DNA of 64,000 nucleotides from Candidatus Enterousia sp. (lineage in GTDB: Bacteria > Pseudomonadota > Alphaproteobacteria > Rs-D84): positions 2,421 to 66,420 of the forward strand of contig JAZLCH010000006.1 of NCBI GenBank assembly GCA_045614145.1, given 5' to 3'. The notes under the pieces are model-generated. The model saw only the letters and a list, made by a program, of their open reading frames with translations. It was not told where the DNA came from and ran no database searches. Below, in pieces: positions 6,479 through 63,642 of this stretch. Both the position numbers and the translations under genes were made by a program. The stretch's first letter is position 1. Each line of letters starts with the position of its first letter.

Positions 6479-6780
6479 ATTTTATAAAAAAATATTTCAA
6501 GATTTTTATTGGTATTGCTGTTTTAATACTGGTTATCATTGTGTTCTTTTTTGCACAACGCAGTGACACATTGGAAACAGGCACATTGAAAAATTGGCGT
6601 GCAGCAACAATTGAACGCAGAATTTCTGCCGCACAAATTATGACGGGCGCGACAGAAAACATTGATATTTTGGTTGCCTGTATCGATAAGATGGCCAGTC
6701 TGCCCAACAGTGGCGAAATGGCGGTACGCGATGCCGCGTCTTTGTGCCATACAGGCATAAAATTAAAACCCAGTTTATAA
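6475..6780 (+). CDS. Small membrane protein (one N-terminal TM helix)
   Basis: The ATGA overlap with the upstream gene suggests translational coupling. A hydrophobic segment IFIGIAVLILVIIVFFF is present. Confidence 0.35.
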   Translation: MNFIKKYFKIFIGIAVLILVIIVFFFAQRSDTLETGTLKNWRAATIERRISAAQIMTGATENIDILVACIDKMASLPNSGEMAVRDAASLCHTGIKLKPSL

Positions 6781-9134: not shown

Positions 9135-9139
9135 ATATT

Positions 9140-10404: not shown

Positions 10405-11655
10405 TTATTTGCTGATGCAATGCGCCAATGATTGCGCGACCAGCGACTGTTCCGTCTGGGACATTTCTGATATTGGCACAACATAGCAACGCGCACTGTC
10501 GCGAATAACAATCACCTTGGTTCCCTGAGAATATGCACGTTGCATATCGTCCATCTGGGCACTGGTTAAAAATGCATTATCAACAAATACATTCGCAGGA
10601 TTCATGCCAGCATTGACAACCTGATATGCGGTTTGATAATCATATATTTCTGAACGTGATGTAACGTTCATCCAAATTGACTGATTTGCATATGGATTTT
10701 CAGCCGCCGTGCCAGATGTCGGGAATGTCGCCCCCAATGCAACCGCAGCAACAGTCTGCAGATTTGATGGCTGGTTCAAATCTGACGAGTGCGAGACAGT
10801 GTTTAATTTCAAATTGTCACCACATGCCAGATTCATGCGATTTGTATAGCCGGCCAACACAGCATCAACAGCAGCCTGCCAATCTGCGCCCTTGTTATTC
10901 AATTCCAAAGACACAATCTTTTCAGCCCAACCAAATATATCCGCCCCAACATTACCAGCAGTGGCGAAACGTGTTACCATTTCTGCGCTGCCCCCCGGAA
11001 TACCTGCGCCACAATAATCAGTCAAGGCGTTGTTTAATTTGCTGTTGGTTTCATTACCATATGCAAGCGCAACCGAGTGGCATGCCATGGCCGCTTCTAA
11101 TTCTTGGCGACGTTTTAGGCACAAATCAGAATTTGATTTTGACAACTGATTGGCCATGGACGACATAGACAGATACGACATAACTTCCTGTTGAACATAT
11201 GATGGACACAAATGCGCCGCAGTGTTCATCCCAGATTTACCGTTAACCGTTCCAACACCATATTGCGGCAGTAAAATTTCAGTATCCTTTTGCAGACACA
11301 GCAAGGCATAATTGTATAATTCGTTTTCAGATGCATATTGGCATTTTGATTCACGCTGGCCCGGGACAATCGTTACATCACCACAATAATCAGACAAACA
11401 TGCAAAAATCTTTTGACGGCACGCGGTATCAACGTCAGGCTGTGCAACCATAAAATATGTATTACGTTGGTTCGTTTTATATGCCTGGGCAATGCCTGCA
11501 TTGCCACGCAAATTTGTGCCCGACGTAGATGGTGCACCAACAATTAAACCACGCCCCTGATTTGGCGCAGCAGTTGTACCAGCAGAAACAGCAAACCCAG
11601 CACCAGCAAACAAAAATGTGCCAATAAATCCGAAGACACCAAAGAAATGTTTCAT
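10405..11655 (-). CDS. Secreted hypothetical protein (signal peptide, Cys-containing, 416 aa)
   Basis: A signal-peptide-like N-terminus FGFIGTFLFAGAGFAVSA is present. No domain was recognised. Confidence 0.45.
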   Translation of the reverse strand: MKHFFGVFGFIGTFLFAGAGFAVSAGTTAAPNQGRGLIVGAPSTSGTNLRGNAGIAQAYKTNQRNTYFMVAQPDVDTACRQKIFACLSDYCGDVTIVPGQRESKCQYASENELYNYALLCLQKDTEILLPQYGVGTVNGKSGMNTAAHLCPSYVQQEVMSYLSMSSMANQLSKSNSDLCLKRRQELEAAMACHSVALAYGNETNSKLNNALTDYCGAGIPGGSAEMVTRFATAGNVGADIFGWAEKIVSLELNNKGADWQAAVDAVLAGYTNRMNLACGDNLKLNTVSHSSDLNQPSNLQTVAAVALGATFPTSGTAAENPYANQSIWMNVTSRSEIYDYQTAYQVVNAGMNPANVFVDNAFLTSAQMDDMQRAYSQGTKVIVIRDSARCYVVPISEMSQTEQSLVAQSLAHCISK

Positions 11656-15975: not shown

Positions 15976-15992
15976 AACCGTGGTTTTTTATT
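15967..15992. terminator. Intrinsic terminator after the GT2 gene
   Basis: Hairpin ccacggt-aaa-accgtgg is followed by a T-tract. Confidence 0.55.
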
Positions 15993-16614
15993 CAGACGGG
16001 CCGCACACTTCCCACAATACGCTAAAATCGCTGTTACATATAACACATAAAGTTGTTTGATTTGATGCGCCACCTACTTTTTGTACAATTCTGCCTGTAG
16101 ATGATTCTACAATTGCGGTCAGATTAGTCGTGTATTCTGTAAACTGCATCTTTATAGGGAACGATAAATAATTTTTCCCATTGTTACATCCAACAACTCC
16201 CCCTTGTTCAACCCAGCCTGATTTATATTTTCTATACCAAGTATAGTTATTAGCCGCGGTTGGCATTTGCCATGCAATCACATAATCTGTGCCAGACATA
16301 TCTGTAACACTGTCAGCACGTGCCATGGTGGTGCCGCCCAGGGTTGAACCATCGTGAACACGTATTGTGTTACAATCTGTATCCATTGTAATTTCTCCGC
16401 ATACGCCGGTATAGTTATCGTTTTCGGTACTGTTGCCACGTTTAATCTTTAATTTGCGATTGTTATGCGTATTGTTCAGATATTTTTCAATATTAAATCC
16501 CGTCAGGCGACGACACATTTCACATGTTATGTCGCGGCGTTCTTGCGGGCTGATTGATTCTTCTATAAAACGCGTAAGAGTGTTCAATAAAACCGTTTTA
16601 TCATGTGCAGTCAT
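15988..16614 (-). CDS. Hypothetical protein (208 aa, Cys-containing)
   Basis: The ORF lies downstream of the guanylate-kinase-like gene on the same strand. No motif was recognised. Confidence 0.35.
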   Translation of the reverse strand: MTAHDKTVLLNTLTRFIEESISPQERRDITCEMCRRLTGFNIEKYLNNTHNNRKLKIKRGNSTENDNYTGVCGEITMDTDCNTIRVHDGSTLGGTTMARADSVTDMSGTDYVIAWQMPTAANNYTWYRKYKSGWVEQGGVVGCNNGKNYLSFPIKMQFTEYTTNLTAIVESSTGRIVQKVGGASNQTTLCVICNSDFSVLWEVCGPSE

Positions 16615-20120: not shown

Positions 20121-21581
20121 TTATTTTTTAGAAAAAACATGCGCCCCCATGTAATTAAACATCGCATTAACCGCATTACATTCTTCTAGATAGTTACTTT
20201 GCGCCAGCATAGTCGCCATCGCATCCGTTTCTTGATCCGTCAATGAATATACGTCTTTATCAAGCGCATCTTCGCCTGCAGATTGTTTTGACAATTGATT
20301 TGCAGGCACACCCCATGTCTCTTTACTTGGTTTCTGCTTAGCAAATGCGTCTGTCAATTTCATAAAAGATATAATAAATCGGTACTGTTTTGCCCCCATG
20401 ACAAAAGAATCCAGACTGTCCGACCTTAGATACAGTTCTGAAAATCCGTTATTATCAACAAATTGTAATGTACCACAGGGATTAGTTTTGCCAAAGTGCC
20501 TTAACAAGGCAGGTACATATTGATTTATACCCGTCTTATGTTCTATATCTGCAGCGTTCAACAAATCACTGTCGCGCCTTTTTTTATCTATGATTTTAAT
20601 CAACGAATATGGTGCACCGGAAAACTCGCGCAATTTTATATTGTAAAACGATGCAAAATCTATACAATAGTCTATGACCTGAGTAATATCATTCTTGCGG
20701 TGTCCTGGGCACATACGTTCAAATACAGCAACATTTTCTGGGCTGAGTGTTGTTGGGTCCGCGAAAAATGTTTTCAACACTGAATTTTTTAACATTGCAT
20801 TATTATCTCTTTGGACCCACCCCAGCAAATCATCAAGATTGCCAACAGGCAGATACACATAAACATTATTATTACGAATAAAATTGATTGATTTCTTTGT
20901 GCCAGACGCCCAGTATTGCTTTAATAACCCGTCCCCCAATCCTGGCACCTTGATATATCTTTCTATGTCGGCACCATTTAACAACCTACCTTCGCCGTGC
21001 GATTTTTCCAGATATTTTATAAAATCTGCGGATTCTTGTCGGTCATAAACCGTTAGTCCATTTGAAATACAATAATCCATCATATATCGCATACAATCAT
21101 TCGCGGTTCGAAGTATTATATTTGCATCATTTTTCCACGGTCGAACATTTGTTATCTTATATATTTTTGTGTTTAACCGGTCACGTAAAAGCGCCTGATA
21201 AAAAAGCGGTTTATATTTTGTTTGTAATAACATTGAAGAATCTGGACACGTGATAACACCGCGCCCAACGTGTGCTAATAAATCACGAGCGTTAAGAATA
21301 CCGTACTCTTTATCTAAATCATGCTCACTTAATAAAGCACCTTCGGTATATTTTTTGCGTATGTATTTCGTCATTCCGATATCATCCAAGGGGGCCTTTC
21401 TGTCATTTGGCAAACGTAAATTATAATACCCTGCAAAATTTAAAATATAATCCAACAAATCTTCTTTGTTTTTTATTTCAGGACGCCCTTTTGTAAAATA
21501 CATGCGGTCAAAATCAGCAATGTTATGCTCTGCTCGCAGTCTTTTTCCAAAAAGTATTTTTAGCATTTCTTTGTGTAACAT
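20121..21581 (-). CDS. Hypothetical protein with an internal ~250-aa duplication
   Basis: Two related modules were found: LLDYILNFAGYYNLRLPNDRKAPLDDIG...HDLDKEYGI and VIDYCIDFASFYNIKLREFSGAPYSLIK...ADIEHKTGI. Confidence 0.45.
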   Translation of the reverse strand: MLHKEMLKILFGKRLRAEHNIADFDRMYFTKGRPEIKNKEDLLDYILNFAGYYNLRLPNDRKAPLDDIGMTKYIRKKYTEGALLSEHDLDKEYGILNARDLLAHVGRGVITCPDSSMLLQTKYKPLFYQALLRDRLNTKIYKITNVRPWKNDANIILRTANDCMRYMMDYCISNGLTVYDRQESADFIKYLEKSHGEGRLLNGADIERYIKVPGLGDGLLKQYWASGTKKSINFIRNNNVYVYLPVGNLDDLLGWVQRDNNAMLKNSVLKTFFADPTTLSPENVAVFERMCPGHRKNDITQVIDYCIDFASFYNIKLREFSGAPYSLIKIIDKKRRDSDLLNAADIEHKTGINQYVPALLRHFGKTNPCGTLQFVDNNGFSELYLRSDSLDSFVMGAKQYRFIISFMKLTDAFAKQKPSKETWGVPANQLSKQSAGEDALDKDVYSLTDQETDAMATMLAQSNYLEECNAVNAMFNYMGAHVFSKK

Positions 21582-24524: not shown

Positions 24525-25037
24525 TTATTCTGTTACCACAGGCATGGGCTGAGGCATTTCTGGCGCCGCAGGCTGGGGCATGTTTGATTTATTTTTACGA
24601 AACATTTTACGTGCCGCACGAAATTCTTTACGATTCACACAACCATCTTTATCAATGTCCATAACAGGTAACATTTCTGCCATCTTTGGGCATTTTACAA
24701 CCAAGCAGCCATTTTCAAATTCTGGACGTGGTGCCATTTTGCCACGTTTGTTCATCGGACAAAATTTGGCAGCAGCAAACCCCATGGCAAATATAATCAA
24801 AAACACAATTAATTTTTTTACAAAACGACCAAAAGTACATTTTTTGTGTCCGCAATGTCCATGACATGCACAACCGTGCGAACAGGCGCATTCATGCGAA
24901 CAGGCACATTCATGCGTCTCAACAACAGCAACCGGCGCAACTTTCTTTACAGCAGCTTTTTTAACAACGGGTTTAGAAATTGTTTTTTTTGCAACAGTTT
25001 TTTTTGTTGCAGGTTTTTTATTCGATTTTTCTGCCAT
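24525..25037 (-). CDS. Membrane protein with a Lys/Ala-rich histone-H1-like N-terminus, a Cys/His-rich cluster and a canonical EF-hand loop
   Basis: The N-terminus KKPATKKTVAKKTISKPVVKKAAVKK is followed by HECACSHECACSHGCACHGHCGH, then a TM helix IVFLIIFAMGFAAA, then DIDKDGCVNRKE, which matches DxDxDGxVxxxE. Confidence 0.45.
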   Translation of the reverse strand: MAEKSNKKPATKKTVAKKTISKPVVKKAAVKKVAPVAVVETHECACSHECACSHGCACHGHCGHKKCTFGRFVKKLIVFLIIFAMGFAAAKFCPMNKRGKMAPRPEFENGCLVVKCPKMAEMLPVMDIDKDGCVNRKEFRAARKMFRKNKSNMPQPAAPEMPQPMPVVTE

Positions 25038-36769: not shown

Positions 36770-38657
36770 TCAAAATGTGAAAAAACGTGATGTTGCGTCG
36801 TGGGCATTAACAATATTTGCCGCGCTGTTTATCGCAATGATTGGACGCGTGTTTATATATGGTGGCACAACGCCTGTTATGCCGGGCGCGCAAAGTGCGA
36901 ATATTTCACGGCCGATTGAACTGTCTTTTTCAGACGTTCTGCGTCGTGCAGACGAAATCAAGACAATGACCGTCAACGGAAATAATGCGACCGGAACATT
37001 GGCAGATGGCACAAAATACAAAGCTACAATTACATACGACCCAGAAATGCTGGCGAAACTGGCCGATACGGGTACTGCCATTACAATTGACACGTCACGT
37101 GGTTGGTTTGATACCATTGCAACGTTTGCGCCATTGGCGTTGACGTTGTTATTTATATTCTGGATTTTGCGTGGCTTTCGTCGTGGGGGCGCAGCCGGCG
37201 GAATCAGTCGCAGTCTGATTGGCCAAAACCCAACAAAAATCGCAACAGGCAAACCCAAAACCACGTTCAAAGATGTCGCAGGCATCGATTCTGAAAAACA
37301 AGAACTGGCTGAAATTGTGGATTTCTTGAAAAACAAAGATAAATACAAATCACTGGGGGCGCGCGTGCCACGCGGGGTGCTGCTGTCGGGTCAGCCGGGT
37401 ACAGGTAAAACATTGTTGGCACGTGCAATCGCAGGCGAAGCAAATGTTCCGTTCTTTGCGGCATCAGGGTCTGACTTTTCAGGCATTATCGTTGGATTGG
37501 GGGTCGCAAAAATCAAAGAAATATTTGAAATGGCAAAACGTAATGCACCATGCATCTTGTTCATTGATGAAATTGACGCAATTGGGCAAAAGCGTTCAAC
37601 ACATTCATATAATGACCAAGACCGTGAACAAACCTTGAATCAGTTGCTGATTGAAATGGACGGTTTTGCAAATGACACAGGCATTATCGTTATTGGCGCA
37701 ACAAACCGCGCAGATATGCTGGACGCGGCATTGCTGCGCCCAGGACGCTTTGACCGCCAGGTTTATATTGAATTACCTGACATGGCGGGACGTCGCGAAA
37801 TCTTGGATTTATATGCTAAAAAGGTTAAAATTGGCGACGATGTAAATCTGATGGATTTGGCCCGTGGCACAACCGGATTTTCAGGCGCAGATTTAGAAAA
37901 CCTGTTGAATGAAGCGGCACTGCACGCGGTGCGAAACGGGCGCGACAAGATATCGCCAGATGATATAGAAGAAGCACGCGACAAAATCATTATGGGGCCG
38001 CGCAAGATTCGCAAAATGCGCCCAGAAGATATAAAACTGACCGCCTATCACGAGGCAGGACACGCGTTCGTCAGTCTGATGTACGATGGTGTCGCAGATC
38101 CAATTCACAAGGCGACAATTATTCCACGTGGACGCGCACTGGGGATGGTACAGCACCTGCCGATTGATGACAAGGTTTCAATGACCCTGGCCGAGGTGCG
38201 TGCAAATCTGTCTATTGCACTGGCCGGCAGATGCGCAGAAGAAATATTCTTTGGCGCAGACAAAATCACCACCGGCGCAGAAAGCGATATTGCGTCGGCA
38301 ACGCGACTGGCCCGTTATTCAATTACAACCGCCGGGCTGTCCAAGAAAGTTGGATTGCCGGCAATTAATCAGGTCGGCACATTTGGTGTGCGTGGTGCGT
38401 TGGAAAATGCGTCTGAAAAGACCGCAGAAATTGTTGATGCAGAAATACGCGCATGGCTGGATGCAGCGCATGCAGACGCGACCAAGCATTTGGTTAAAAA
38501 TAAAGCCAAGGTTGAGAAATTGGCAAACGCATTGCTGGAACACGAAACACTGACCGGCGAAGAAATTCGCGAAATTGTGTTTGGTAAAACAAAAAAGACC
38601 GCAGCCAAAAGAACAACCAAGAAACGTGCAAATGCAACAAAAACTGGCGAACAATAA
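36726..38657 (+). CDS. ftsH: ATP-dependent zinc metalloprotease FtsH
   Basis: TM helices, an AAA Walker A GQPGTGKT, an SRH segment and an HEAGHA zinc motif are present. Confidence 0.95.
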   Translation: MKNLKDFKKSNKNNNQNVKKRDVASWALTIFAALFIAMIGRVFIYGGTTPVMPGAQSANISRPIELSFSDVLRRADEIKTMTVNGNNATGTLADGTKYKATITYDPEMLAKLADTGTAITIDTSRGWFDTIATFAPLALTLLFIFWILRGFRRGGAAGGISRSLIGQNPTKIATGKPKTTFKDVAGIDSEKQELAEIVDFLKNKDKYKSLGARVPRGVLLSGQPGTGKTLLARAIAGEANVPFFAASGSDFSGIIVGLGVAKIKEIFEMAKRNAPCILFIDEIDAIGQKRSTHSYNDQDREQTLNQLLIEMDGFANDTGIIVIGATNRADMLDAALLRPGRFDRQVYIELPDMAGRREILDLYAKKVKIGDDVNLMDLARGTTGFSGADLENLLNEAALHAVRNGRDKISPDDIEEARDKIIMGPRKIRKMRPEDIKLTAYHEAGHAFVSLMYDGVADPIHKATIIPRGRALGMVQHLPIDDKVSMTLAEVRANLSIALAGRCAEEIFFGADKITTGAESDIASATRLARYSITTAGLSKKVGLPAINQVGTFGVRGALENASEKTAEIVDAEIRAWLDAAHADATKHLVKNKAKVEKLANALLEHETLTGEEIREIVFGKTKKTAAKRTTKKRANATKTGEQ

Positions 38658-38673
38658 ATTTGAACTAATACAA

Positions 38674-39279
38674 ATGCCACCACAGAATACACAATCGGTG
38701 ATTGTGTCTGTGGGGGATGCGTGCGTTATCTTTGACCCGTGGGGACATGTGGACGATTGGATGCGCGCATTGGACATGCGCGGTTTAAAATTGCGTGCAA
38801 TTTATGTGACACACGGGCACCCCGATCATATCGCATGTGCGCCAATGCTGGCCCAGAAATACGGTGTACAGTGGTTCCTGCATACGGGGGATTTTCGCCT
38901 GGTTGGATGGGGTAATGATTTATTGGAATACTTTGGTTTACCAAAAATCAACATTAATAATGCGCGCCCAACACCGCTGGAAATACAATCCGTTGAAATT
39001 TTACCTGGGATTAGTATGGATATAATTGAAACACCGGGACACACACCAGGGGGCGTTGCGTATCATTTCCCAGATGAAAAGGTAATTATTATTGGCGATA
39101 CACTGTTCCAGGAATCTGTTGGCCGATACGATTTGCCGGGCGGGGGAAAAAAAATGCTGATGCAATCAGTTGCAAGTATATATAATTTAAATTTATCTGA
39201 TGACACAGAAATAATTCATGGACACGGCATGGCAACAACCGTTGGATGGTTAAAACGAAACAATCCGTATTTTCATTAA
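38674..39279 (+). CDS. MBL-fold metallo-hydrolase (glyoxalase II-like)
   Basis: The MBL zinc motif THGHPDH is present, and downstream conserved His/Asp ligands. Confidence 0.7.
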   Translation: MPPQNTQSVIVSVGDACVIFDPWGHVDDWMRALDMRGLKLRAIYVTHGHPDHIACAPMLAQKYGVQWFLHTGDFRLVGWGNDLLEYFGLPKININNARPTPLEIQSVEILPGISMDIIETPGHTPGGVAYHFPDEKVIIIGDTLFQESVGRYDLPGGGKKMLMQSVASIYNLNLSDDTEIIHGHGMATTVGWLKRNNPYFH

Positions 39280-39285
39280 TACCAG

Positions 39286-40158
39286 TTAATAATCGTATTC
39301 GTCAACACCTGTGCCCTTGTAGGTTGAGCCCTTGTCGTTAATTGGTGTTCCGAGATAGGTACAACCAATTGTGCCCTTTAGATCCTGGGGGTTCGAAAAA
39401 GTAAAATATCCGAATTCATCTTCTACCCCTTTGGACAATGGGAATACAGTGCATGTTTGTATGCCGATCTCTCCTGTTTTAATGTCAACATAAAGACCAT
39501 TTGAAACCTGTTCAAATGCCCGGTGCGAATACGAGCCGGTATACATTCCACGTGGACACGGCCGACAAATGGGAATGATGTCTTTTTTATCAGCGCTGAG
39601 GCAACCGGCATTTGGATTGTTGGGGTATTCCCCCGTCTCGGCAGCGAGATAGTATCCACCCGAACACTGCAAATAACCAGTTGGATCGTTCTTTGCTGTT
39701 TCTAGCTGGTAACCACCATTAAGGCAGTTGCCAGCGGAAGTGGTACCAGAACCGGTGCAGCTCCAAGTACACTGTCCTGTTGATTGCTCATTGTAACCAG
39801 TTGTTCTGTGATACGTACAACTTTGGCAGTTATCCGGATCTACACCAGCGATATCAGGCATATTACAGGTATAGTTTGCAGGAGTCAACGCGTCATACCC
39901 AGAGCAAACCTCATCAGAATTAGAACAGCCCACCGATGCCGCCCAACCTGTATAACAAAGGGGGTGAAAACCTTGTTCGCCTGATTCATGCTTCACTTTT
40001 ACCATAATATTGTTTTGATTTTTTTCATTTCGGTAAAATTCTTTTCCTGCTAGATTTGTGTTTTCTGAGTCTGTTTCTGCATAAACCGTAGTATTTTTTG
40101 TAAAACATGCCAGTGTACAATAAAAACAATACAGAAAAAATCTTTGGATTGGTTTCAT
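39286..40158 (-). CDS. Secreted cysteine-rich protein with furin/TNFR-like Cys repeats
   Basis: A signal peptide is followed by more than 25 Cys in CxxC / CRPCPRGMYTG-type patterns that resemble eukaryotic cysteine-rich repeats. Confidence 0.4.
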   Translation of the reverse strand: MKPIQRFFLYCFYCTLACFTKNTTVYAETDSENTNLAGKEFYRNEKNQNNIMVKVKHESGEQGFHPLCYTGWAASVGCSNSDEVCSGYDALTPANYTCNMPDIAGVDPDNCQSCTYHRTTGYNEQSTGQCTWSCTGSGTTSAGNCLNGGYQLETAKNDPTGYLQCSGGYYLAAETGEYPNNPNAGCLSADKKDIIPICRPCPRGMYTGSYSHRAFEQVSNGLYVDIKTGEIGIQTCTVFPLSKGVEDEFGYFTFSNPQDLKGTIGCTYLGTPINDKGSTYKGTGVDEYDY

Positions 40159-40264
40159 TTGGGAACTCTCTTTCTGGGGGATATTTTAGTTTAATGCACG
40201 CTGAAATTCAAGTATAATTTATGGGTTGAATATTTATGCAAAATCCACTAAATTCTGTACTGTT

Positions 40265-42322
40265 ATGAAACGCGATTTAATTGATTTTTTAAATTCTGAT
40301 TTGCAATTTATACGCGGGGTTGGCCCCGTGGTGGCAACACGACTAATTGACGTGCTGGGTGGGCGAAGGGTGTTAGATTTCTTGCTGCATCGACCGTCTT
40401 ATGTGCGCGCACGCGGCATAACAGAAAATGTTATGGATGCAAATCCAGGCGATGTAATCACAATCCAGGTGCAAATAAAATCTCATAAACGGGGCGGCGG
40501 GCTTGGACGTGGACGACGCAGACCAACCCAGGTTATCTGTAATGATAAAATGAATAATACCATTGTTCTGCAATTCTTTAATTCAAATTATCTGGATTAC
40601 TGGTTAAAAAAACTGCCCGTGGGAACGTGGCGAATGATTTCAGGTAAACTGGAAAAATCATCACGACCAACAATTAATCACCCAGACTTTATCGAAGAAT
40701 TACAAAACGCAGCAAAAATCCCATCAGCCCAGGTTATCTATCCTGCCGGCGAAGGTTTAACACAAAAAATATTTACAAATATTCGGGATGGGATATTTAG
40801 CGCCCTGCCCGATAAACTGCGCGGCGTGACAGATGGGCGCATAACAGAATTCTTTGATGCATTGGAACATGTACATTATGCGAAGTCTGATGCCGATTTA
40901 GCACCAAATGCAACATACATGGCAAAATTAGCATATTGCGAATTACTGTCGCACCAGGCCGCAATTGTTATCAGCAGAAAAAATCGAACAGATGTACGCA
41001 ACCGACGAATACCGCGACCCACAAAATATAATTTGATGGACAAATTTTGGGAAAATATTCCGTTCGAAATGACCGGGGCGCAAAAACGTACCTGTAATGA
41101 AATCTTTGATGATTTGAAACAAAATATTCCTATGATGCGACTGGTCCAGGGGGATGTCGGCAGTGGCAAAACAATCGTCGCGTTGGCCGCCGCAATAAAA
41201 ATGGCAGAATCTGGGGCGCAGACCGCCCTGTTGGCGCCAACAGATACCCTGGCCCAGCAACACTGGGTAAAAATCAAGCCAATGTGTGATAAAATGGGGA
41301 TTGTTTGCGAAATCCTGACCGGGCGCGACAAGGGCGCATGCAGACGCGAAAAATTAATATCACTGCGTTCTGGACGTACGCGGATTGTCGTGGGAACGCA
41401 TGCACTGTTTTCGAATGATGTGGAATATCGCGACCTGGGGCTGGTTATCATAGATGAACAACATAGATTTGGCGTATCCCAACGCGAAGCGTTACGACAA
41501 AAAGGTAATAACCCAGATATGTTGGCACTGTCTGCAACACCAATTCCGCGAACGCTGTCTATGACCGTGTATGGCGATATGAATGTTTCAATCATTAATG
41601 AAAAACCTGCCGGACGAAAACCTATTAAAACAATCAAAATTTCATGCGGACGTATAATCGAACTGATTGAACGAATAAAACCACAAATTGATAATGGCGC
41701 CAAGGTATTCTGGGTGTGCCCGTTGGTCGAAGAATCTGAAAACGAAAACACAATGGGCGCCGCCGAAGAACGATATAAAATGTTGGCGGAATATTTCCCA
41801 AATGCAGGTCTGGTTCATGGAAAAATGGACAAGAAAGAACGCGACCGCGTTATGACAGAATTTGCCGATGATAATTCAGGTATGCAAATCTTGGTTGCGA
41901 CAACAGTAATCGAGGTCGGTATCGATGTCCCGCGCGCGTCTATTATAGTAATTGAAAACGCAGAACGGTTTGGATTGGCCGCCCTGCACCAATTGCGCGG
42001 ACGCGTGGGGCGCGGCAACACGCAATCGTTTTGCGTTCTGGTATTTGGACGAAACATCAGCGAAGATGGATTAAAACGACTGGACGTGCTGTGCGAAACA
42101 GATGACGGATTTGCCATTGCAGAACAAGACCTGATTATGCGGGGGGTCGGTGAACTGTTGGGAACACGACAAAGCGGATGGATGCGATATCATTTTGTAG
42201 ACTGGCGTGAACACAGGGATTTATTCAAGTTGGCCGCTGCGGCAGCGCGCGACAATGATATTGATTCATGGGAACAGGATTTAATGTTTATCTTTGACCG
42301 TGGGGTGGTGCTGGGTGCGTAA
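40265..42322 (+). CDS. recG: ATP-dependent DNA helicase RecG
   Basis: A wedge/OB N-terminus, a helicase Walker A GDVGSGKT, DEQHRFG and a helicase C-terminus are present. Confidence 0.9.
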   Translation: MKRDLIDFLNSDLQFIRGVGPVVATRLIDVLGGRRVLDFLLHRPSYVRARGITENVMDANPGDVITIQVQIKSHKRGGGLGRGRRRPTQVICNDKMNNTIVLQFFNSNYLDYWLKKLPVGTWRMISGKLEKSSRPTINHPDFIEELQNAAKIPSAQVIYPAGEGLTQKIFTNIRDGIFSALPDKLRGVTDGRITEFFDALEHVHYAKSDADLAPNATYMAKLAYCELLSHQAAIVISRKNRTDVRNRRIPRPTKYNLMDKFWENIPFEMTGAQKRTCNEIFDDLKQNIPMMRLVQGDVGSGKTIVALAAAIKMAESGAQTALLAPTDTLAQQHWVKIKPMCDKMGIVCEILTGRDKGACRREKLISLRSGRTRIVVGTHALFSNDVEYRDLGLVIIDEQHRFGVSQREALRQKGNNPDMLALSATPIPRTLSMTVYGDMNVSIINEKPAGRKPIKTIKISCGRIIELIERIKPQIDNGAKVFWVCPLVEESENENTMGAAEERYKMLAEYFPNAGLVHGKMDKKERDRVMTEFADDNSGMQILVATTVIEVGIDVPRASIIVIENAERFGLAALHQLRGRVGRGNTQSFCVLVFGRNISEDGLKRLDVLCETDDGFAIAEQDLIMRGVGELLGTRQSGWMRYHFVDWREHRDLFKLAAAAARDNDIDSWEQDLMFIFDRGVVLGA

Positions 42323-43658: not shown

Positions 43659-45059
43659 TTATTTTTTGTAATAACGCTGAATTTCAGTCATCACAAAGTT
43701 AAACAGTTTGCCCGCCTGGGTCGTTTGTGGCATTGCCCAATCATGCTGCATATATGGCATTGCCGCGACCAACACAAAACGCGCCATAAAATGGAATATG
43801 TTTGCCTGTTGCACACGCGACAGTTTAATCGGCGCATTATCAATGGAAAACAATTCGTTTTCAATCGCATCGTCCAGTTTTTCGTTTATATTATCCAGAA
43901 TTTTTTGTGGATAATATAATTTGCATTCTTTTGGAAAACCTTCGAACATTGCGGTTGAGTCACCCTGGGAATACAACAGATTCCAACCGACGCGGTCAAA
44001 CAAATCTTCCAGACAGTTGCAAATCATACTGTTATATGATTTTACCCCATTTTCCATAAAGGTCGCCAGGCGCGCTTCTATATCATCTGATTTTGCACAC
44101 TTTTTCTTGCGCGCATCTTCATAAGCCAGGTGCGTTTGGCGTTCAAATTCAAAGAATGCACGAACCTGACATATAATCTCCATAGGAATAACAGTTTCAG
44201 GGTTGGGGCCAATGTTAATAACCAGTTTTGCATCACGATAATTGCGTGGATTTTGCATATTATAAAAACTGTCGCGGACTGATATGATACGATCTGGCAT
44301 CATTGCCTGAATCCGTTCAATAAATGTGCGCGCCTGGGGGATTAAATCAAACAGACACTTTACCCGCCAGACATCCTGCAGACGCATGCGCGGTTTTTCA
44401 ACCCGATCCAAGGCACGAACCAAATCAACCGCAATGTTTTCATGCCCAGAACCAATGATGGACAGCACTGTTTCCGATGGCGTTGAAATATATTTTTCAT
44501 TCAGTTTATCGCGGATCTTGGTCGCAATGGCGCGCGCGGACGCTTCGCGTTCGTGCGATGCGATTACGCGGTATACGGTTGACGCAACCTCGTCCACATA
44601 AGAGGCATAGTATTTACCAGTCATTTTATCCAGTGCGCGCCCAATTTTCTTCTGGGCCGCCACAATAACCGTGACAATGGACGATACCGCCAAGTCAATC
44701 TTGTGACCGGCAGTGCTGGTGAAAAATTGATTGCGCATCGGATCCGCATCCAAACGATGCTGCACAATATATGGCGACAGCGGATTAATATCAGAAATGC
44801 GCATAGGTTCGTCAATGGCACTGTCCGAGTCGTAATCATACTTCATAACCGCTGCCTTGGGCGCACCAAAGCATTTGCCCAGAACATAAAACACTTCACG
44901 AAACCAGTGCATACTATCCGAATACAGCAGGCGCAAATGATCAGCCGCAACTTCGTTTATACGCCCAGATTCCAAGGCCCGGTCTATGGCAATCAGATTC
45001 TTTTTGTCATTTTCTGCGGCGATGTCTTGGGCGACTGTTTCAGCACCGATATAAGACAT
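43659..45059 (-). CDS. RelA/SpoT-like (RSH) nucleotidyltransferase-domain protein, 466 aa, no HD hydrolase domain
   Basis: Central motifs are WRVKCLFDLI (compare GRVKSxxSI), DSFYNMQNPRNYRDAKLVI (compare DYIANPKPNGYRSLHLVV) and EIICQVRAFFEFERQTH (compare EVQIRTxxxHxWAExxH). Confidence 0.45.
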   Translation of the reverse strand: MSYIGAETVAQDIAAENDKKNLIAIDRALESGRINEVAADHLRLLYSDSMHWFREVFYVLGKCFGAPKAAVMKYDYDSDSAIDEPMRISDINPLSPYIVQHRLDADPMRNQFFTSTAGHKIDLAVSSIVTVIVAAQKKIGRALDKMTGKYYASYVDEVASTVYRVIASHEREASARAIATKIRDKLNEKYISTPSETVLSIIGSGHENIAVDLVRALDRVEKPRMRLQDVWRVKCLFDLIPQARTFIERIQAMMPDRIISVRDSFYNMQNPRNYRDAKLVINIGPNPETVIPMEIICQVRAFFEFERQTHLAYEDARKKKCAKSDDIEARLATFMENGVKSYNSMICNCLEDLFDRVGWNLLYSQGDSTAMFEGFPKECKLYYPQKILDNINEKLDDAIENELFSIDNAPIKLSRVQQANIFHFMARFVLVAAMPYMQHDWAMPQTTQAGKLFNFVMTEIQRYYKK

Positions 45060-47870: not shown

Positions 47871-48052
47871 GCAACTCGCCCCTTTGCCGACAAAATCAAA
47901 AAACCGCCCTGACGGACGGTTTTTAAAATTTTGGTGCGAGCAAAGTACTTCGCCGGTATTTTTTACCGGCTCGCCTCGCAACTCGCCCCTTTGCCGACAA
48001 AATCAAAAAACCGCCCTGACGGACGGTTTTTAAAATTTTGGTGCGAGCAAAG
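47871..48052. repeat. Two tandem ~75-bp copies (107-bp period) comprising the tRNA-Gly 3' end plus a terminator hairpin
   Basis: Copy 1 spans 47871-47945 and copy 2 spans 47978-48052; the two are near-identical. Copy 2 contains the 3'-terminal 14 nt of tRNA-Gly. A 32-bp spacer carries the palindrome gccggtattttttaccggc. Confidence 0.7.
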
Positions 48053-48115
48053 GGGCTCGAACCCTCGACCTCAACCTTGGCAAGGTTGCGCTCTAGCCAA
48101 CTGAGCTACGCTCGC
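48039..48115 (-). tRNA. tRNA-Gly (anticodon GCC)
   Basis: Manual fold on the minus strand: acceptor GCGAGCG/TGCTCGC, D-arm GCTC-AGTTGGCT-AGAGC, anticodon loop TTGCCAA, T-arm GAGGG-TTCGAGC-CCCTT, CCA encoded. Confidence 0.8.
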
Positions 48116-48209: not shown

Positions 48210-49199
48210 TTAAAACCATGTCCATGGCTGAAAAACCTTTAACAGCCCCAGCGCAGTGCGCTTGTCCGCATAGGTATGACCACAACGCGGACAGACATTA
48301 AATGGCTTTAATATTGATTTTGCCCGCTTGAACATCATAAACCATATGTACAGGCCGATTGCCCACGCCGCAACAACCAGTCCCCATGCAACATAACCGA
48401 AATATTTATCAACTGTGTTTGTGATAACTGTTATTGTGGTTACATCTGATTTTGATAAATCGTTATAGATTTTTGTTGCAACAGGCCAACTGGACGGACG
48501 CCACGGATAAACATGTTCAATACCATAATTCGTCAGCAATGTTGTCCCCAGACCACCAGATTGTTTATCCAGCGCAGTTTTTATCGCACTGTCCAGTGCG
48601 TTATCAATTTCCGTCTGGGCAACGCGTGTCAGATTTGATTTTACGGAATCTAATTTTTCATTCACCAGTTTGGCGGTGTTATCAACTTTTTCAATGGTAG
48701 AATTTGCCTGGGCAACACCTTGGTCAACAGATGCGACCGCCTTGTCTACACCGTCTGTTTTAACACCAAATTTGTTTGCCAGGCCTGTTAATTTTTTAAT
48801 ACCAGTTGTCTTTTCTGATACCTGGGCGTTTTTTTCACGGGCCGCAGCGGTTTTGTCAGTGACCCGGTCAACCGCGTCTTCGGCAATTTTTACACCGTCT
48901 ATGGCAACTGCAATCGGTTTTTCCAGATTGATAGAATCAGCAACACCGTCCAACAATGCCTCGTATTGCTTTACTATACCCTTTTGCAGGTCAAAGAACA
49001 TAGACACAACAATCGATTTCTTAATCGGGGACGAATATCTGTTTTTTACATGTAACGGGCCCCATACAACCAATGCCAACCATATGACCGTTATTATTGC
49101 AAATATGCGCTTTGTCCATGTTATGACAGACTGTTTCTTTTTAACGGTTTTTGCGCCGCCCATGTCGATTACTTCGACCTCTTTCTTTTTACGTGGCAT
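48210..49199 (-). CDS. Membrane protein with two TM segments, a coiled-coil middle and a C-terminal zinc ribbon (CPRCGHTY)
   Basis: The N-terminal TM segment is IFAIITVIWLALVVWG and the C-terminal one YVAWGLVVAAWAIGLYIWFMMF, followed by CxxC-like CPRCG. Confidence 0.4.
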   Translation of the reverse strand: MPRKKKEVEVIDMGGAKTVKKKQSVITWTKRIFAIITVIWLALVVWGPLHVKNRYSSPIKKSIVVSMFFDLQKGIVKQYEALLDGVADSINLEKPIAVAIDGVKIAEDAVDRVTDKTAAAREKNAQVSEKTTGIKKLTGLANKFGVKTDGVDKAVASVDQGVAQANSTIEKVDNTAKLVNEKLDSVKSNLTRVAQTEIDNALDSAIKTALDKQSGGLGTTLLTNYGIEHVYPWRPSSWPVATKIYNDLSKSDVTTITVITNTVDKYFGYVAWGLVVAAWAIGLYIWFMMFKRAKSILKPFNVCPRCGHTYADKRTALGLLKVFQPWTWF

Positions 49200-59677: not shown

Positions 59678-59753
59678 GGCCCCATCGTCTAGAGGCCTAG
59701 GACACCGCCCTTTCAAGGCGAGAACACCGGTTCGAATCCGGTTGGGGCTGCCA
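59678..59753 (+). tRNA. tRNA-Glu (anticodon TTC)
   Basis: Manual fold: acceptor GGCCCCA/TGGGGCT, D-region GTCTAGAGGCCTAGGAC typical of tRNA-Glu, anticodon loop CTTTCAA, T-arm ACCGG-TTCGAAT-CCGGT, CCA encoded. Confidence 0.8.
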
Positions 59754-61290
59754 AATCTGATTTTCCGTCCATTTGGGCGGATTTTTTATTGAAAATCCAA
59801 GGGGTTGCGGCGGTTCGAAATCCACTCTCTATACAAAAAACAGGTTTTTGCTCAAAAAGTATATGAACAAGTCGCTTGCGCTGGTTTAAACTTCCATTTT
59901 TCCACAGAATTGCGGGATTTTTGAAGAAACTATGCCCACGTTCCATGGCGGTTCGAAATTTCTGGGTGGCCGACATTGGCAACGCATCATTCAGTTGTTG
60001 TTCCAACTTTCGCTTCTTTGCTGATGCATGGCGTAACTGTTCAGAATATACCGCAACCATATCTTGGTCATCATTTCTATTTGCATCTGCCACCAAACGA
60101 CCAAACTGAACTATATCTTGTTCCAATGTTTCTATTTCCCTTTTCCATTTTTTTCGCTGCGCCAACACTTCATCGTCCTTGGCTCTGCAAACACGCTGCA
60201 ACACCACGTCGAATAAAAGAATCACATCATCTGGGGTCTGCATGCCATTCAAACATTCCACAAAAGCATCTTCAACCAGCGCACGTTTAATTGATTTATT
60301 ACGATGAACGCACCCCTTGTTATAGCATCGGTAATATGGATGTTTATTTTTACGCCCCCTGGCAAAATATCCACTTAATGGATTACCGCAATATTCACAA
60401 CAAATTTCATTACGCAAGGGAAATTCATATGCTAAATCTGAACGATGCGGCTGTCGCTTGTGTTTGTTTAGTTTGTTTTGAACTGCCAGAAACAAGTCCT
60501 GTGGGATAATTTTATCCATTTGCCATTCCCGACGTTCGATTCCCCAACGCCCGTATGCAAATACACCAGTATAAACCTCGTTCTGTAACATATTAGAAAC
60601 CTTGGTGTCATTTAACTTATCGTTATTAAACGCCCCTGATGCACGTAAAAATTCTGTAACATCATGCTTGGTTTCTAATTCCCCAGATGCGTATTTAGCA
60701 AATGCTTGGTAAATAACACTGGCTTTCGGCTCATCACGCACCAAAATAGTGCGTTTATGTTCATTTTTTATGCGTTTAAGCCCCGATGGCGGATTTAACG
60801 GATAAAATCCCAGTGTGCATAATGCACGCATTCTGTTAGTTGTTTTTTCAGACAATTCATCACTATACATTTGTGCGCGCAACACATCAAGACCACGCAT
60901 AAATCGCCCCATGGCATTATTTTCCAATTTGCCACCGACCACCGTTTGTAATTCCAAGTCATATTTCATAATAACATTTTCAATTGCCGTGTAATAAACA
61001 CCCATATTGCGCGCCAAGCGCGACATGTCATAACACAGAATGCGAATATGTTTATGTTTGTGATTTTTTTCGATATATTCAACCATGGCGTCCAGTCCAG
61101 GGCGGTTTGTTTTCCACCCCGACACCCCGTCTTCATAAAAGAATTTATCTATTTTGAAACCATTGTTGTTTGCATAGTTTAAACACGCCTGTTTTTGTGA
61201 TGTTATTGTTTCGTTTTTCGCTTGTTTATCCGATGAAACACGACAAAGGCACAATGTTTCTATTGGCAGGTTTTTAGTTGTTTGGGACAT
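59713..61290 (-). CDS. Large serine recombinase (resolvase/integrase family); ORF C-terminus overlaps the tRNA-Glu 3' end
   Basis: The N-terminal resolvase domain has a catalytic-Ser region LCRVSSDKQ. A recombinase domain and a Cys-rich zinc-ribbon-like CEYCGNPL...YYRCYNKGCVHRNK follow. The product is 525 aa. Confidence 0.8.
   Translation of the reverse strand: MSQTTKNLPIETLCLCRVSSDKQAKNETITSQKQACLNYANNNGFKIDKFFYEDGVSGWKTNRPGLDAMVEYIEKNHKHKHIRILCYDMSRLARNMGVYYTAIENVIMKYDLELQTVVGGKLENNAMGRFMRGLDVLRAQMYSDELSEKTTNRMRALCTLGFYPLNPPSGLKRIKNEHKRTILVRDEPKASVIYQAFAKYASGELETKHDVTEFLRASGAFNNDKLNDTKVSNMLQNEVYTGVFAYGRWGIERREWQMDKIIPQDLFLAVQNKLNKHKRQPHRSDLAYEFPLRNEICCEYCGNPLSGYFARGRKNKHPYYRCYNKGCVHRNKSIKRALVEDAFVECLNGMQTPDDVILLFDVVLQRVCRAKDDEVLAQRKKWKREIETLEQDIVQFGRLVADANRNDDQDMVAVYSEQLRHASAKKRKLEQQLNDALPMSATQKFRTAMERGHSFFKNPAILWKNGSLNQRKRLVHILFEQKPVFCIESGFRTAATPWIFNKKSAQMDGKSDLAAPTGFEPVFSP
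59765..59790 (+). terminator. Terminator after tRNA-Glu
   Basis: Hairpin ccgtcc-attt-gggcgg with one G-U pair is followed by a T-tract. Confidence 0.5.
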
Positions 61291-61315
61291 ATCATCACCC
61301 CTTTAATTACAATTT

Positions 61316-61450
61316 TTATTTTGTTAATAAAGTCCAGGCAAGTTCCTCCATAATCTCCACAAGTTTTGCCAACTGCTCATCTGTTAATTTGGTATGTTTC
61401 AAATACTTTCTTGCATCAGACACCGACATAATCGCCATCGCATATACCAT
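61316..61450 (-). CDS. Possible small ORF (44 aa) immediately upstream of the serine recombinase; candidate small regulatory or directionality factor
   Basis: The product is MVYAMAIMSVSDARKYLKHTKLTDEQLAKLVEIMEELAWTLLTK. It is not in the ORF track because it is under 60 aa. No clear SD is present. Confidence 0.2.
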   Translation of the reverse strand: MVYAMAIMSVSDARKYLKHTKLTDEQLAKLVEIMEELAWTLLTK

Positions 61451-61511
61451 TTAGGTTGCGTTTTGGCTTCGGTGCTTCCGATAATCAAAACAAGATTTCC
61501 ATTGGACTTTT

Positions 61512-62375
61512 TCATTTTGTCACCTTTCTTTTCTTTACTTGTTTGATGTGTATAATATTACCGTTACGTATCGATACTTCGACACTACCAAACCCTATTC
61601 CGTTTATGATTTTATGCAATTCGTCTTCTGGCGACTTGTTATGCGAATATTCTATTTCTAAACAATCTATTTGACCATCGTGTTTTTTTGCGCTGACAGT
61701 ACTGTTTTTTGGTGCTTCATTTACTGCATCAATTAAATCTTTTTCGCCATTATTTAACCACGTTGTGTTTTCAACATGCTTTGCTATTTCCCGATTTATA
61801 AATGTTTCATCAAAAACATCATTCAAATTCATTGTAATGTATGTACTTGGCATACACCCGCTTTGTTGATTTTTTAATATATCGCGTTGAGTCATAATCG
61901 CCGCACCGCCATCATCAAAAACCAGTAAATAAATATTACCGTCACCAGACATGCAAATAGAACGCCACAGCGCGAATTCTAACGACGTTAATGATTCTTG
62001 GCGTTTCTCATAATAATCTTCTGTATTCGGTTCTATATCCGTATCTAACACCAAACAAAATAACGCCCGATATGTTCTTTTTAGCGCCCCATTGGATAAA
62101 CCAATTTTACGCAACCTTGTTGCAATACCAACGAACAAAATGTCCATAAGTGTAAATTTATGCCATCCACGGTCATCAGAACGAATATCTGTTAATACCC
62201 CTGTTTGCAACCAGTAATTTATTACCCGCGAAGAAATCCCCGTGTTATTCGCGGTATATTGTTTTTTTCGCCACGTATTTATTGTTTCCCAGTTATCTTC
62301 TGTTGCAGCCGCATGTCCAAGCCCCATTTCATGCAGCGTTTCATCAGTATATTCCAGCATTATGGTCATTATCAT
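61512..62375 (-). CDS. Hypothetical island protein (287 aa), possible HTH-like segment
   Basis: The segment GISSRVINYWLQTGVLTD is HTH-like. The gene sits between the recombinase and the ankyrin protein. Confidence 0.35.
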   Translation of the reverse strand: MIMTIMLEYTDETLHEMGLGHAAATEDNWETINTWRKKQYTANNTGISSRVINYWLQTGVLTDIRSDDRGWHKFTLMDILFVGIATRLRKIGLSNGALKRTYRALFCLVLDTDIEPNTEDYYEKRQESLTSLEFALWRSICMSGDGNIYLLVFDDGGAAIMTQRDILKNQQSGCMPSTYITMNLNDVFDETFINREIAKHVENTTWLNNGEKDLIDAVNEAPKNSTVSAKKHDGQIDCLEIEYSHNKSPEDELHKIINGIGFGSVEVSIRNGNIIHIKQVKKRKVTK

Positions 62376-62451
62376 TCCCCTTATGAACTCATGACCATAA
62401 TAGGAACGAATAAACGCAAAAGCAAGAAAAACATTACATTATTGTAATATT

Positions 62452-63642
62452 TTACTTCGTGCCGAATTTCTTTTGTTGCATTTTGCGATATTCTGCCTTG
62501 GCGGTGATATTCGGGGTAATTTTGATTAATTCATCCCAATCATCATAACTGAAAAACCTGTTTCTGAAATCGTGTGCGGCAGCGATGAAACGCTTTTCTC
62601 TGGCGTTGTCATTATTGTATGCATATACACTCCACAAATATTCATAATACAGGAATTGGGCAACATTTTGCGAAACCATGTCACACTCGTCATAGAAACG
62701 TCTTGCGAAACTTTCTCCCAGTTCGTTATACAACATTTCTACGCCGTTGCCGCAAAAGGCATAAGAAGCGGGTTTGTCATAAATATCCCACGGTTCTTCA
62801 CCATTGGCCCAGCGATATTGCCCATGGCATTCCAAAATATAACGTGGTTCAATAAATTCAACAGGTTGCGCTGGCACAGGTTCATACACTTTATATTCTT
62901 GCCAAAAACCAATAAAACGGATTTCGCGAAACGATTGCGCTTTAACGCTAGTATCTTTACCCAACCAGTCCCACACATCATCCAGCGCACCCGCGCGCAA
63001 TAAAATCAGTTCTTTTTGTGCGTTTTCATGGGACGCTGGCTGCGAACGCACAATTGCCAACGGTGTTTTTTGTGTCCCATCTATCATCGTAGCAGCATTT
63101 ACATTTGCACCGTTAGCAACCAGCATTTCAATGATTTCAACTGATGAATTCTGTCGCAGTGCGTTGGTTAACGGACTATCCCCAACGTCATACCCATCAA
63201 CCCAATCTACGATTTCGCCACGCTGTATATGTTTGTTTAATTCGTCTGGCGTTATTTTAGACCAATCTTCAATATTCAATAAATCATGACCTGGCCTGTC
63301 TGGATTGATATTTTTACGTCTGGCCGAATAAATTTCAGGTTTTATGATATTCTCAATGTTATCAACATCAGGTTCGTTCAATTCATATTCTATCACCATT
63401 TCCACCATATAATCTATACTTGACTGGCGGTTTTCAAATACAGCAATATCCATCCCGCCATCAAATATACACGCGGCTTTCTTGGCAATATCAAAGTCAG
63501 TTTTTACCCACTTTCCACCGACAAACGCCTCTGTTTTACCAGAACCATCCACACGGTGAACAATGCCATCACCATAATAATCATACTTGGAAAAGTCCAA
63601 ATCTAATGCTTTTAAGATTTCATCTTTGTTCATTTTGTTCAC
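62452..63642 (-). CDS. Ankyrin-repeat-containing protein
   Basis: The ANK consensus SPLTNALRQNSSVEIIEMLVANGANVNAAT...TPLAIV is present. The product is 396 aa. Confidence 0.55.
   Translation of the reverse strand: MNKMNKDEILKALDLDFSKYDYYGDGIVHRVDGSGKTEAFVGGKWVKTDFDIAKKAACIFDGGMDIAVFENRQSSIDYMVEMVIEYELNEPDVDNIENIIKPEIYSARRKNINPDRPGHDLLNIEDWSKITPDELNKHIQRGEIVDWVDGYDVGDSPLTNALRQNSSVEIIEMLVANGANVNAATMIDGTQKTPLAIVRSQPASHENAQKELILLRAGALDDVWDWLGKDTSVKAQSFREIRFIGFWQEYKVYEPVPAQPVEFIEPRYILECHGQYRWANGEEPWDIYDKPASYAFCGNGVEMLYNELGESFARRFYDECDMVSQNVAQFLYYEYLWSVYAYNNDNAREKRFIAAAHDFRNRFFSYDDWDELIKITPNITAKAEYRKMQQKKFGTK

Follow-up and report, generated by a model that had tools for sequence, protein, structure and literature searches.

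The stretch of DNA considered here (the window) comprises 64,000 nucleotides of contig JAZLCH010000006.1 of Candidatus Enterousia sp., and the subject of the analysis is a reverse-strand gene for a cysteine-rich protein of 290 amino acids whose export is predicted. The gene is located between recG, from which it diverges, and a convergent gene for a metallo-beta-lactamase (MBL)-fold hydrolase. The same order, namely M48 peptidase, recG, the Cys-rich gene, the MBL-fold hydrolase, ftsH and tilS, is common to the loci L001–L008 (L numbers designate loci of relatives and P numbers homologous proteins), and all members of the family are positional orthologues adjoining recG in Candidatus Enterousia. 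According to the list of open reading frames (ORFs) and the translation, the frame is intact from ATG to stop, and the opposite strand carries only ORFs of 60–66 amino acids over the same interval, none long enough to compete with it. Our analysis shows that the mature part of this protein is hypervariable, that a framework of its Cys residues is fixed, and that its signal peptide is better conserved than the mature protein, contrary to what is usually seen.

The original prediction described a secreted, eukaryote-like protein of the furin/TNFR type with more than 25 cysteines. The count is in fact 18, with three residues (C11, C14, and C18) in the N-terminal hydrophobic segment that forms the signal peptide and 15 in the mature part. 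The cysteine-rich character itself was nevertheless borne out: Cys makes up 6.2% of the protein compared with a mean of 1.5% across the 59 genes of the window (binomial P 5e-7), and the protein ranks second among them in Cys fraction. The GC content of the gene (43.2%) does not depart from that of the window (43.1%).

Its extreme hypervariability is the most notable property of the gene and one that is invisible from a single sequence without relatives. In the blastn comparison with the closest relative, L001, 17.6 kb were aligned at 92–97% identity with one break, at 39466–40075, which corresponds to codons 28–231. Sliding-window identity was 0.28–0.65 inside the hypervariable region, in comparison to 0.9–1.0 in the flanks, and the island extends from the end of the signal peptide into the final codons of the hydrolase gene, where identity falls at 39298–39209. 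Between the window and L001, 15 neighbouring genes were 88.6–98.9% identical, whereas the Cys-rich gene was 43.8% identical; for L005, the corresponding values were 79–95% for nine neighbouring genes and 25.7% for the Cys-rich gene. In the regions open to comparison this was the only sharp divergence island. The same pattern was found deeper in the genus, since the RecG proteins of L011 and L012 are 95% identical and their Cys proteins 43%. Despite many insertions and deletions (indels), all of them in frame, every orthologue has preserved the reading frame, and the ORF is intact in each of the nine loci with a full-length copy (9/9).

The rate of synonymous substitution (dS) between the window and L001 was 0.10–0.24 in the flanking genes, whereas in the Cys-rich gene it was saturated, with a nonsynonymous rate (dN) of 0.46; for codons 29–230 alone, dN reached 0.61 and dS was again saturated. 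With saturated dS set against such low values in the flanks, the alleles of the window and of L001 are far more ancient than the genomes in which they reside, a pattern that suggests either exchange of alleles through recombination or a polymorphism maintained over a long time.

A close pair of orthologues, those of L005 and L007, allowed the mode of selection to be estimated. Their flanking genes are 99.5–100% identical, with dS of 0.007–0.029 (about 0.015). In the Cys gene, 47.5 nonsynonymous (Nd) and 2.5 synonymous (Sd) differences were counted, which corresponds to dN 0.087, dS 0.016, and dN/dS 5.3; the five flanking genes pooled had Nd 11 and Sd 26 (Fisher P vs the Cys gene ~2e-10), and a binomial test of the Cys gene against the neutral expectation gave P 0.003. 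The differences were distributed over codon positions 1, 2, and 3 as 23:19:8 and were accompanied by two in-frame indels, while residues 1–35, residues 192–224, and every Cys remained unchanged. Several contigs, assembled from independent samples, carry each of the two alleles, so they do not represent assembly noise. Thus, the L005 and L007 orthologues have evolved under diversifying (positive) selection, with dN/dS significantly above 1.

The N-terminus of the protein, in accordance with the original prediction, has the appearance of a signal peptide. By inspection, its only hydrophobic stretch is N-terminal and consists of an n-region with K2 and R6 and an h-region from F7 to F19, the best 11 residues of which have a mean hydropathy of 1.8; V25-Y26-A27 ahead of E28 fits the -3/-1 rule for a signal peptidase I site, and the orthologues carry an equivalent V-[YF]-[AG] cleavage site. 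The charged n-region, the h-region and the small residues at -3/-1 thus agree with a Sec-dependent signal peptide of the signal peptidase I type. The signal peptide (MKPIQRFFLYCFYCTLA.FTK) is 59–70% identical even to those orthologues whose mature chains are no more than 25% identical, and two invariant Cys residues (C11 and C14) lie inside it. In the hhalign comparison with the L010 protein, only the signal-peptide segment was aligned (E 9e-8, probability 94%). This conservation might be explained by a dedicated route of export or anchoring, by a signal peptide that stays uncleaved as an anchor, or by use of the segment as an arm for recombination. The stretch (K/Q)-R-F-F-L resembles the motif of the twin-arginine translocation (Tat) pathway, R-R-x-F-L, minus one arginine. 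The possibility of a lipoprotein was rejected, because the lipobox-like stretch T-L-A-C18 is unique to the allele of the window and every orthologue has Tyr at position 18.

In the mature part, Cys accounts for nine of the 28 columns that are invariant in six orthologues (hypergeometric P 1.6e-6), namely C68, C98, C114, C130, C134, C165, C198, C201, and C236. The best-conserved part of the chain, codons 165–266, has the pattern C165-x2-G-Y-Y ... C186 ... C198-x2-C-P ... C236-[TAY]-V ... [ED]-D-x-x-G-[YW]-[FY]-x-F ... C266, within which C-R-x-C-P at 198–202 is invariant in all six orthologues (6/6). The coordinates of the gene, its parts, its neighbours, and the related proteins at other loci are collected in Table 1.

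Table 1. Features of the recG-linked locus in the window and Cys-rich proteins at the recG loci of other Enterousia genomes.
Feature	Coordinates	Strand	Evidence or context
Coding sequence of the 290-aa Cys-rich exported protein (export predicted)	39286..40158 (stop codon included)	-	ORF list, translation; orthologues in the matching slot of L001-L008
Predicted signal peptide MKPIQRFFLYCFYCTLACFTKNTTVYA, codons 1-27	40078..40158	-	Alignments; hydropathy and -3/-1 rule by inspection
Hypervariable mature region, codons 28-230	39469..40077	-	Breaks between blastn high-scoring segment pairs, sliding-window identity, dN/dS
Best-conserved part, codons 165-266	39361..39666	-	Alignments; core unchanged between L005 and L007
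CRPCPRGMY, codons 198-206; only conserved C-x2-C-P motif	39541..39567	-	Alignment; also present in the final repeat of the long relatives
Divergent intergenic region, Cys-rich gene/recG	40159..40264	.	Promoter scan, DNA alignment
recG, divergent neighbour	40265..42322	+	Pfam DEAD, Helicase_C, RecG
MBL-fold hydrolase, convergent neighbour	38632..39279	+	Pfam Lactamase_B; 94.9% identical to L001
L010 Cys-repeat protein, 772 aa, 87 Cys	L010:7578-9896	-	Gene divergent from recG
L011 Cys-repeat protein, 626 aa, 62 Cys	L011:3602-5482	-	Gene divergent from recG
L012 second copy (L012b), 714 aa, 72 Cys (73 on 717/718-aa ORF calls)		-	Tandem copy
L012 copy adjoining recG, 446 aa, 30 Cys		-	Gene beside recG
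L019 Cys-rich protein, 260 aa, 27 Cys	L019:2182-2964	-	Gene divergent from recG

The likeness to furin or TNF-receptor modules that had been proposed for the protein was only partly retained. At E<=10, the Pfam search of the window protein revealed none of the domains Furin-like (PF00757), TNFR_c6 (PF00020), EGF, or Ephrin_rec_like (PF07699), and at E<=1 the same domains were absent from five orthologues (P0002, P0003, P0004, P0007, and P0008); a lone Pfam line for the window protein, RCR at E 0.054, was dismissed as noise. NCBIfam, PHROGs, and PADLOC gave zero matches for the window protein and for those orthologues that were scanned, the family-profile search of the PDB at E<=10 matched no chain, and PDB sequence and profile searches with the alignments A1, A5, and A6 and with the L010 and L011 proteins returned nothing significant. 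Sub-significant matches of the family profiles were obtained to the GCC2/GCC3 region of thyroglobulin and to EphA2. What stands of the proposed likeness is one C-x2-C-P-x-G-x-Y motif, present once in the window protein at residues 198–206 and not diagnostic as a lone short motif, and an Ephrin_rec_like domain in a protein of the locus L028 (see below). The recurring CxxC...C...CxxG.Y pattern that had been described did not hold up, since the mature part has just two CxxC motifs, C111-C114 and C198-C201, the first of which is CxC in the closer orthologues P0002–P0004. TNFR_c6 modules, for comparison, have about 40 amino acids and 6 Cys. The alignment of the N-terminal half with the C-terminal half scored 25, no better than shuffles (28.9 +/- 6.3); the hhalign self-comparison gave the trivial full-length match only and carries little weight, since off-diagonal alignments are not listed by the method. 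The protein is thus without a match to any of the Cys-repeat domains searched for, whereas its Cys positions are well conserved among homologues.

Homologues of the protein were few. The word-indexed search of 5.8 billion protein clusters found only three, at 39–44% identity, and the exhaustive scan of 1.84 billion representatives with a hidden Markov model (HMM) returned three genuine clusters, namely P0001, P0003, and P0007, the last of which is more distant and has one close relative, P0008. Eukaryotic proteins were absent among the matches of the exhaustive scan. Two further matches of that scan, P0005 and P0006, were discarded as artefacts of repeats or low complexity: one is a translated tandem repeat, the other a Big_13 repeat protein. 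Profile scans with the family alignment found nothing in genome contigs and one already-known contig only in metagenome contigs, and the search with the alignment of the C-terminal module (A5) returned L019b-like proteins only. Literature searches on Cys-rich proteins of the order Rs-D84 and on GCC2_GCC3 domains of bacteria gave nothing relevant. The family, which is unannotated, restricted to the genus, and devoid of a detectable domain, is new.

The nearest records by RecG belong to Candidatus Enterousia and to metagenome-assembled genomes of Alphaproteobacteria from yak, goat, sheep, chicken, and human gut, and the assumption of a host-associated bacterium was therefore correct. The order Rs-D84, including Enterousia, comprises widespread uncultured gut bacteria whose genomes are smaller than 1 Mb and which are apparently incapable of independent life (PMC12306168). 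The genomes of Enterousia are mostly smaller than 1 Mb and lack the tricarboxylic acid (TCA) cycle, respiratory chains, and most biosynthesis, and a partner-dependent lifestyle has been proposed for the genus (PMC12306168). RecG of the window is 98% identical to that of L001 and 92% identical to that of L005, and the linkage of recG to the Cys-rich gene persists in L010, L011, L012, and L019. The automatic ORF call starts recG at TTG 40226 (698 amino acids); the orthologues and the conserved N-terminus favour ATG 40265 (685 amino acids). The intergenic DNA between recG and the Cys gene is nearly invariant across four aligned loci. For the minus strand, it contains a candidate promoter of sigma-70-like type (TTGAAT-17-TAAAAT, 40211 to 40183), which is a consensus match only, the number of such sites being no higher than in shuffled sequence.

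At several of the more distant loci, the position divergent from recG is occupied by much longer Cys-rich proteins. These consist of tandem units of about 28 amino acids with the pattern C-x2-G-[YF]-[YFW]-x4-5-C-x2-C-P-x3-4-C-x5-6, in 7–13 copies that each contain 4 Cys; their closing tail has the form C-[YF]...D-D-x-G-x-[YF]-x-[FY], and the tail of the window protein is similar (C236-T-V-F...E-D-E-F-G-Y-F-T-F). In L012, two Cys-rich copies stand in tandem (6294–8447 and 8555–9895, both on the minus strand). The repeats of the long relatives match no Pfam family and no PDB chain significantly; Pfam MSC matches in these proteins were rejected, as they cover a 27-residue piece of a 337-position model and lie at or below the threshold. 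The window protein shares with the group both its position, divergent from recG, and the RFFLYCFYC signal peptide that L010, L011, and L012b have in common with the window family. Mature regions compared with the long relatives by blastp gave marginal values (E 0.02–0.5 in a 14-sequence database), the repeat profile aligned with the window protein over 12 columns only, around C-x2-C-P, hhalign with the L019 protein gave E 0.018 over the C-terminal module, and an HMM built from the C-terminal modules of the relatives alone did not recover the window ORF. From its position, signal peptide, and weak C-terminal alignment, we consider that the window protein is probably a short, degenerate member of this lineage-specific recG-linked Cys-repeat group, and we do not class it among the ephrin-receptor-like or TNFR-like proteins. 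Codons 165–266 may tentatively be regarded as homologous to the terminal repeat and the C-terminal module of the long relatives.

A related observation comes from L028 of Enterousia excrementavium, a more distant species of the genus, in which a Cys-rich secreted protein is encoded on the far side of the recG–M48 pair (5842–6639, minus strand). This protein passes the Pfam gathering threshold for Ephrin_rec_like, which was taken as the cut-off for membership (29.4 bits vs 23.1 bits, E 6.8e-7), and matches in the PDB the Chlamydomonas mastigoneme protein Mst1 (E 4e-7) and ELAPOR1 (E 1.6e-3), together with a TNFR_ELAPOR1-like match. The window protein aligned with it weakly and in the C-terminal module only (hhalign E 2.9e-4, probability 40%). 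The repeats of the long relatives seem to resemble ephrin-receptor-like or TNFR-like modules. A further Cys-rich secreted protein was noted on the far side of the recG–M48 pair in L029 (13377–15488, plus strand).

Based on these results, and with modest confidence, we favour the view that the Cys-rich gene encodes an interaction protein that is exported via Sec, built on a cysteine scaffold, and subject to diversifying selection. The protein would leave the cytoplasm via Sec, with the N-terminus serving export, and the Cys residues would stabilise a compact scaffold through disulfides or possibly metal. The conserved C-terminal core or module would probably serve folding or anchoring, whereas the variable middle would be exposed outside the cell, where it may bind, or be recognised by, a co-evolving counterpart; a receptor on a host or partner cell, a secretory antibody, and a phage are the candidates. 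Selection would then favour new variants as the counterpart evolves in response, and the very old alleles seen between the window and L001 were probably swapped by homologous recombination via one arm in recG and the signal peptide and another in the hydrolase gene. A bolder version of this view, which we put forward as a conjecture that may well prove wrong, would make the recG-linked gene a determinant of partner or host recognition in an obligately partner-dependent gut alphaproteobacterium with a tiny genome. As a bacterial parallel to the evolution of conotoxins or of Giardia surface proteins (see below), it would combine a conserved, sequence-specific export signal and a fixed Cys scaffold with an exposed surface rewritten by extreme positive selection; whole alleles would be swapped via the flanking arms, and the number of repeats (0 to ~13) would set the reach from the cell.

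Several observations weigh against the interaction protein. The dN/dS above 1 was seen in the orthologues of L005 and L007, whereas comparisons involving the allele of the window are saturated and give dN/dS of 0.12–0.33. The alleles P0002, P0003, and P0004 have dN/dS of 0.69–0.83 with dS at 4–7 times the flank value, so that recombination and selection are confounded there. The disulfides are assumed, and the organism is reported to be without respiratory chains (PMC12306168). We recognised in the protein neither an outer-membrane anchor nor a secretion-system signal or sorting motif, and its location past the inner membrane is presumptive. AlphaFold2 gave no usable structure, with a mean predicted local distance difference test (pLDDT) score of 35.7 for the 4-sequence alignment and 36.4 for the 6-sequence alignment. 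In addition, statistical support for homology between the mature region and the repeat proteins is marginal.

Some other explanations of the gene have to be weighed against an interaction protein shaped by selection. That it encodes a eukaryote-like furin/TNFR-type Cys-repeat protein, acquired from the host or mimicking it and acting as a secreted effector or receptor mimic, appears unlikely. The C-x2-C-P-x-G-x-Y motif, the genuine Ephrin_rec_like domain of the L028 protein with its Mst1 and ELAPOR1 matches, and the sub-significant matches to thyroglobulin and EphA2 all speak for it, whereas neither the domain, in the window protein and five orthologues, nor an internal repeat was detected, the exhaustive search returned no eukaryotic protein, the GC content equals that of the genome, and a chromosomal slot conserved across the genus argues against recent eukaryotic transfer. 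A secreted antagonist, bacteriocin-like or similar to a polymorphic toxin, whose variable part targets competitors in an arms race, would agree with the dN/dS above 1, and secreted toxin families are known to combine a conserved leader with a hypervariable Cys-framed mature part. This explanation is nonetheless rather improbable, as no small immunity-like gene is adjacent (the neighbours are recG, the hydrolase, ftsH, and the M48 peptidase), toxin, PHROG, and PADLOC matches are lacking, and the relatives of 600–770 amino acids look like structural repeat stalks. The invariant Cys residues include CxxC and CxxxC pairs, the unusually conserved signal peptide has a single-Arg Tat-like motif, and the respiratory chain that normally reoxidises DsbB is reported to be missing from the organism (PMC12306168); these features would suit a metal-binding or redox protein, periplasmic or anchored in the membrane, which uses its Cys residues to bind Zn or Fe-S instead of pairing them in disulfides and which may be exported folded by a Tat-like route. 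A replacement of 16% of the residues and two in-frame indels between near-identical strains, at a dN/dS of 5, would not be tolerable for a cofactor enzyme, no known metal-binding domain was matched in Pfam, and the single Arg in the n-region speaks against the Tat component, all of which makes such a protein quite improbable.

The remaining explanations concern the origin of the variation rather than the function of the protein, and both have very little probability in our view. A mutagenic system such as a diversity-generating retroelement (DGR), instead of selection on ordinary mutations, could account for the concentration of differences at codon positions 1 and 2, and an Mtd_N-domain protein is encoded elsewhere in the window (15988–16614). 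The template repeat that such an element needs, that is, a second copy of any part of the gene, is absent from the 64-kb window and from the L001 and L005 loci, and no reverse-transcriptase match was found among the approximately 29 of 59 window ORFs scanned. The variation covers about 600 nucleotides with in-frame indels, the codons that vary do not conform to the AAY type, and no adenine bias is seen among the substitutions; for the window, a DGR is largely refuted. A decaying gene under relaxed constraint and without function would diverge as fast as this one and could equally lack a known domain. It would hardly keep its ORF intact and its indels in frame at all nine full-length loci, nor its Cys residues, signal peptide, and C-terminal core, and neutrality predicts a dN/dS of about 1 in close and distant pairs alike, whereas the observed value significantly exceeds 1 for the close pair and falls far short of it for the distant ones.

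As an interaction protein under diversifying selection, the window protein may be compared with several known systems. The Ephrin_rec_like/GCC2_GCC3 modules (PF07699; Mst1, PDB 8tx1; ELAPOR1, PDB 9vqm) are extracellular Cys-framed modules with a C-x2-C-P-x-G-x-Y core, one copy of which occurs at residues 198–206; the L028 protein of another Enterousia species is a genuine member, whereas the window protein and its orthologues differ in having no match to the family model, no tandem repeats, and a weak alignment to L028 only. The long recG-linked Cys-repeat proteins share the slot, the RFFLYCFYC signal peptide (in L010, L011, and L012b), the final C-x2-G-Y-Y ... C-x2-C-P unit, the tail, and the fast divergence, but they carry 7–13 units of 28 amino acids, which the window protein lacks apart from the terminal unit. 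The conotoxin superfamilies of cone snails and the CxxC-rich variant-specific surface proteins (VSPs) of Giardia have a conserved signal, a fixed Cys skeleton, and a hypervariable mature region. The window family is like them in that conservation is higher in the signal peptide than in the mature part and that the Cys residues are fixed while the residues between them are rapidly replaced under positive selection; the window gene differs from them in being bacterial, single-copy, and placed at a housekeeping locus, in encoding 290 amino acids, and in having no sequence similarity to them. Diversifying selection and allele exchange by recombination are also classical in the surface antigens and adhesins of bacterial pathogens. 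These are matched here by a sharp divergence island, ancient alleles in close genomes, and dN/dS above 1 between close strains, whereas the window protein has no recognisable beta-barrel, pilin, autotransporter, or cell-wall anchor, and its surface exposure is putative.

Secreted or surface proteins under diversifying selection and Cys-framed extracellular modules are thus already known kinds. New here are a signal peptide with higher conservation than the mature chain, a fixed Cys framework with dN/dS of ~5, and a range of 0 to ~13 repeats at one recG-linked locus in an uncultured gut symbiont with a tiny genome. The Cys-rich gene is a concrete candidate for a molecule at the partner or host interface of Enterousia; it can be used in metagenomes as a marker of strain or host specificity, and its product can be expressed for binding studies. 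It also represents an unannotated bacterial Cys-scaffold family, invisible to domain databases, whose mode of evolution is more familiar from the toxins of eukaryotes and the surface antigens of parasites.

Several other features of the window were noted. The Mtd_N protein (15988–16614, minus strand) has 208 amino acids and matches the N-terminal domain of the major tropism determinant of Bordetella phage in Pfam (E 1.4e-8) and a PHROG tail protein (E 8e-8); no template/variable repeat pair was found in the 64-kb window that holds it. A protein of 170 amino acids with a Lys-rich N-terminus and no Pfam match (24525–25037, minus strand) has the largest share of Cys among the window proteins (7.1%, 12 Cys), and ORFs similar to it occur in L010, L013, L015, and L017. 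A perfect direct duplication of 75 nucleotides (47871–47945 and 47978–48052, 107 nucleotides apart) contains a terminator-like hairpin and abuts tRNA-Gly (48039–48115). Directly after tRNA-Glu (59678–59753), a large serine recombinase with Resolvase, Recombinase, and Zn_ribbon_recom domains is encoded (59713–61290, minus strand), followed by a MerR-like gene (61512–62375) and an ORFan (62452–63633), and the region 59678–63633 may represent an element integrated at the tRNA gene. Four ORFs of 329–486 amino acids without a Pfam match (43659–45059, 48210–49199, 10405–11655, and 20121–21581, all on the minus strand) are lineage-specific proteins, two of which are conserved at 91–97% in L001.

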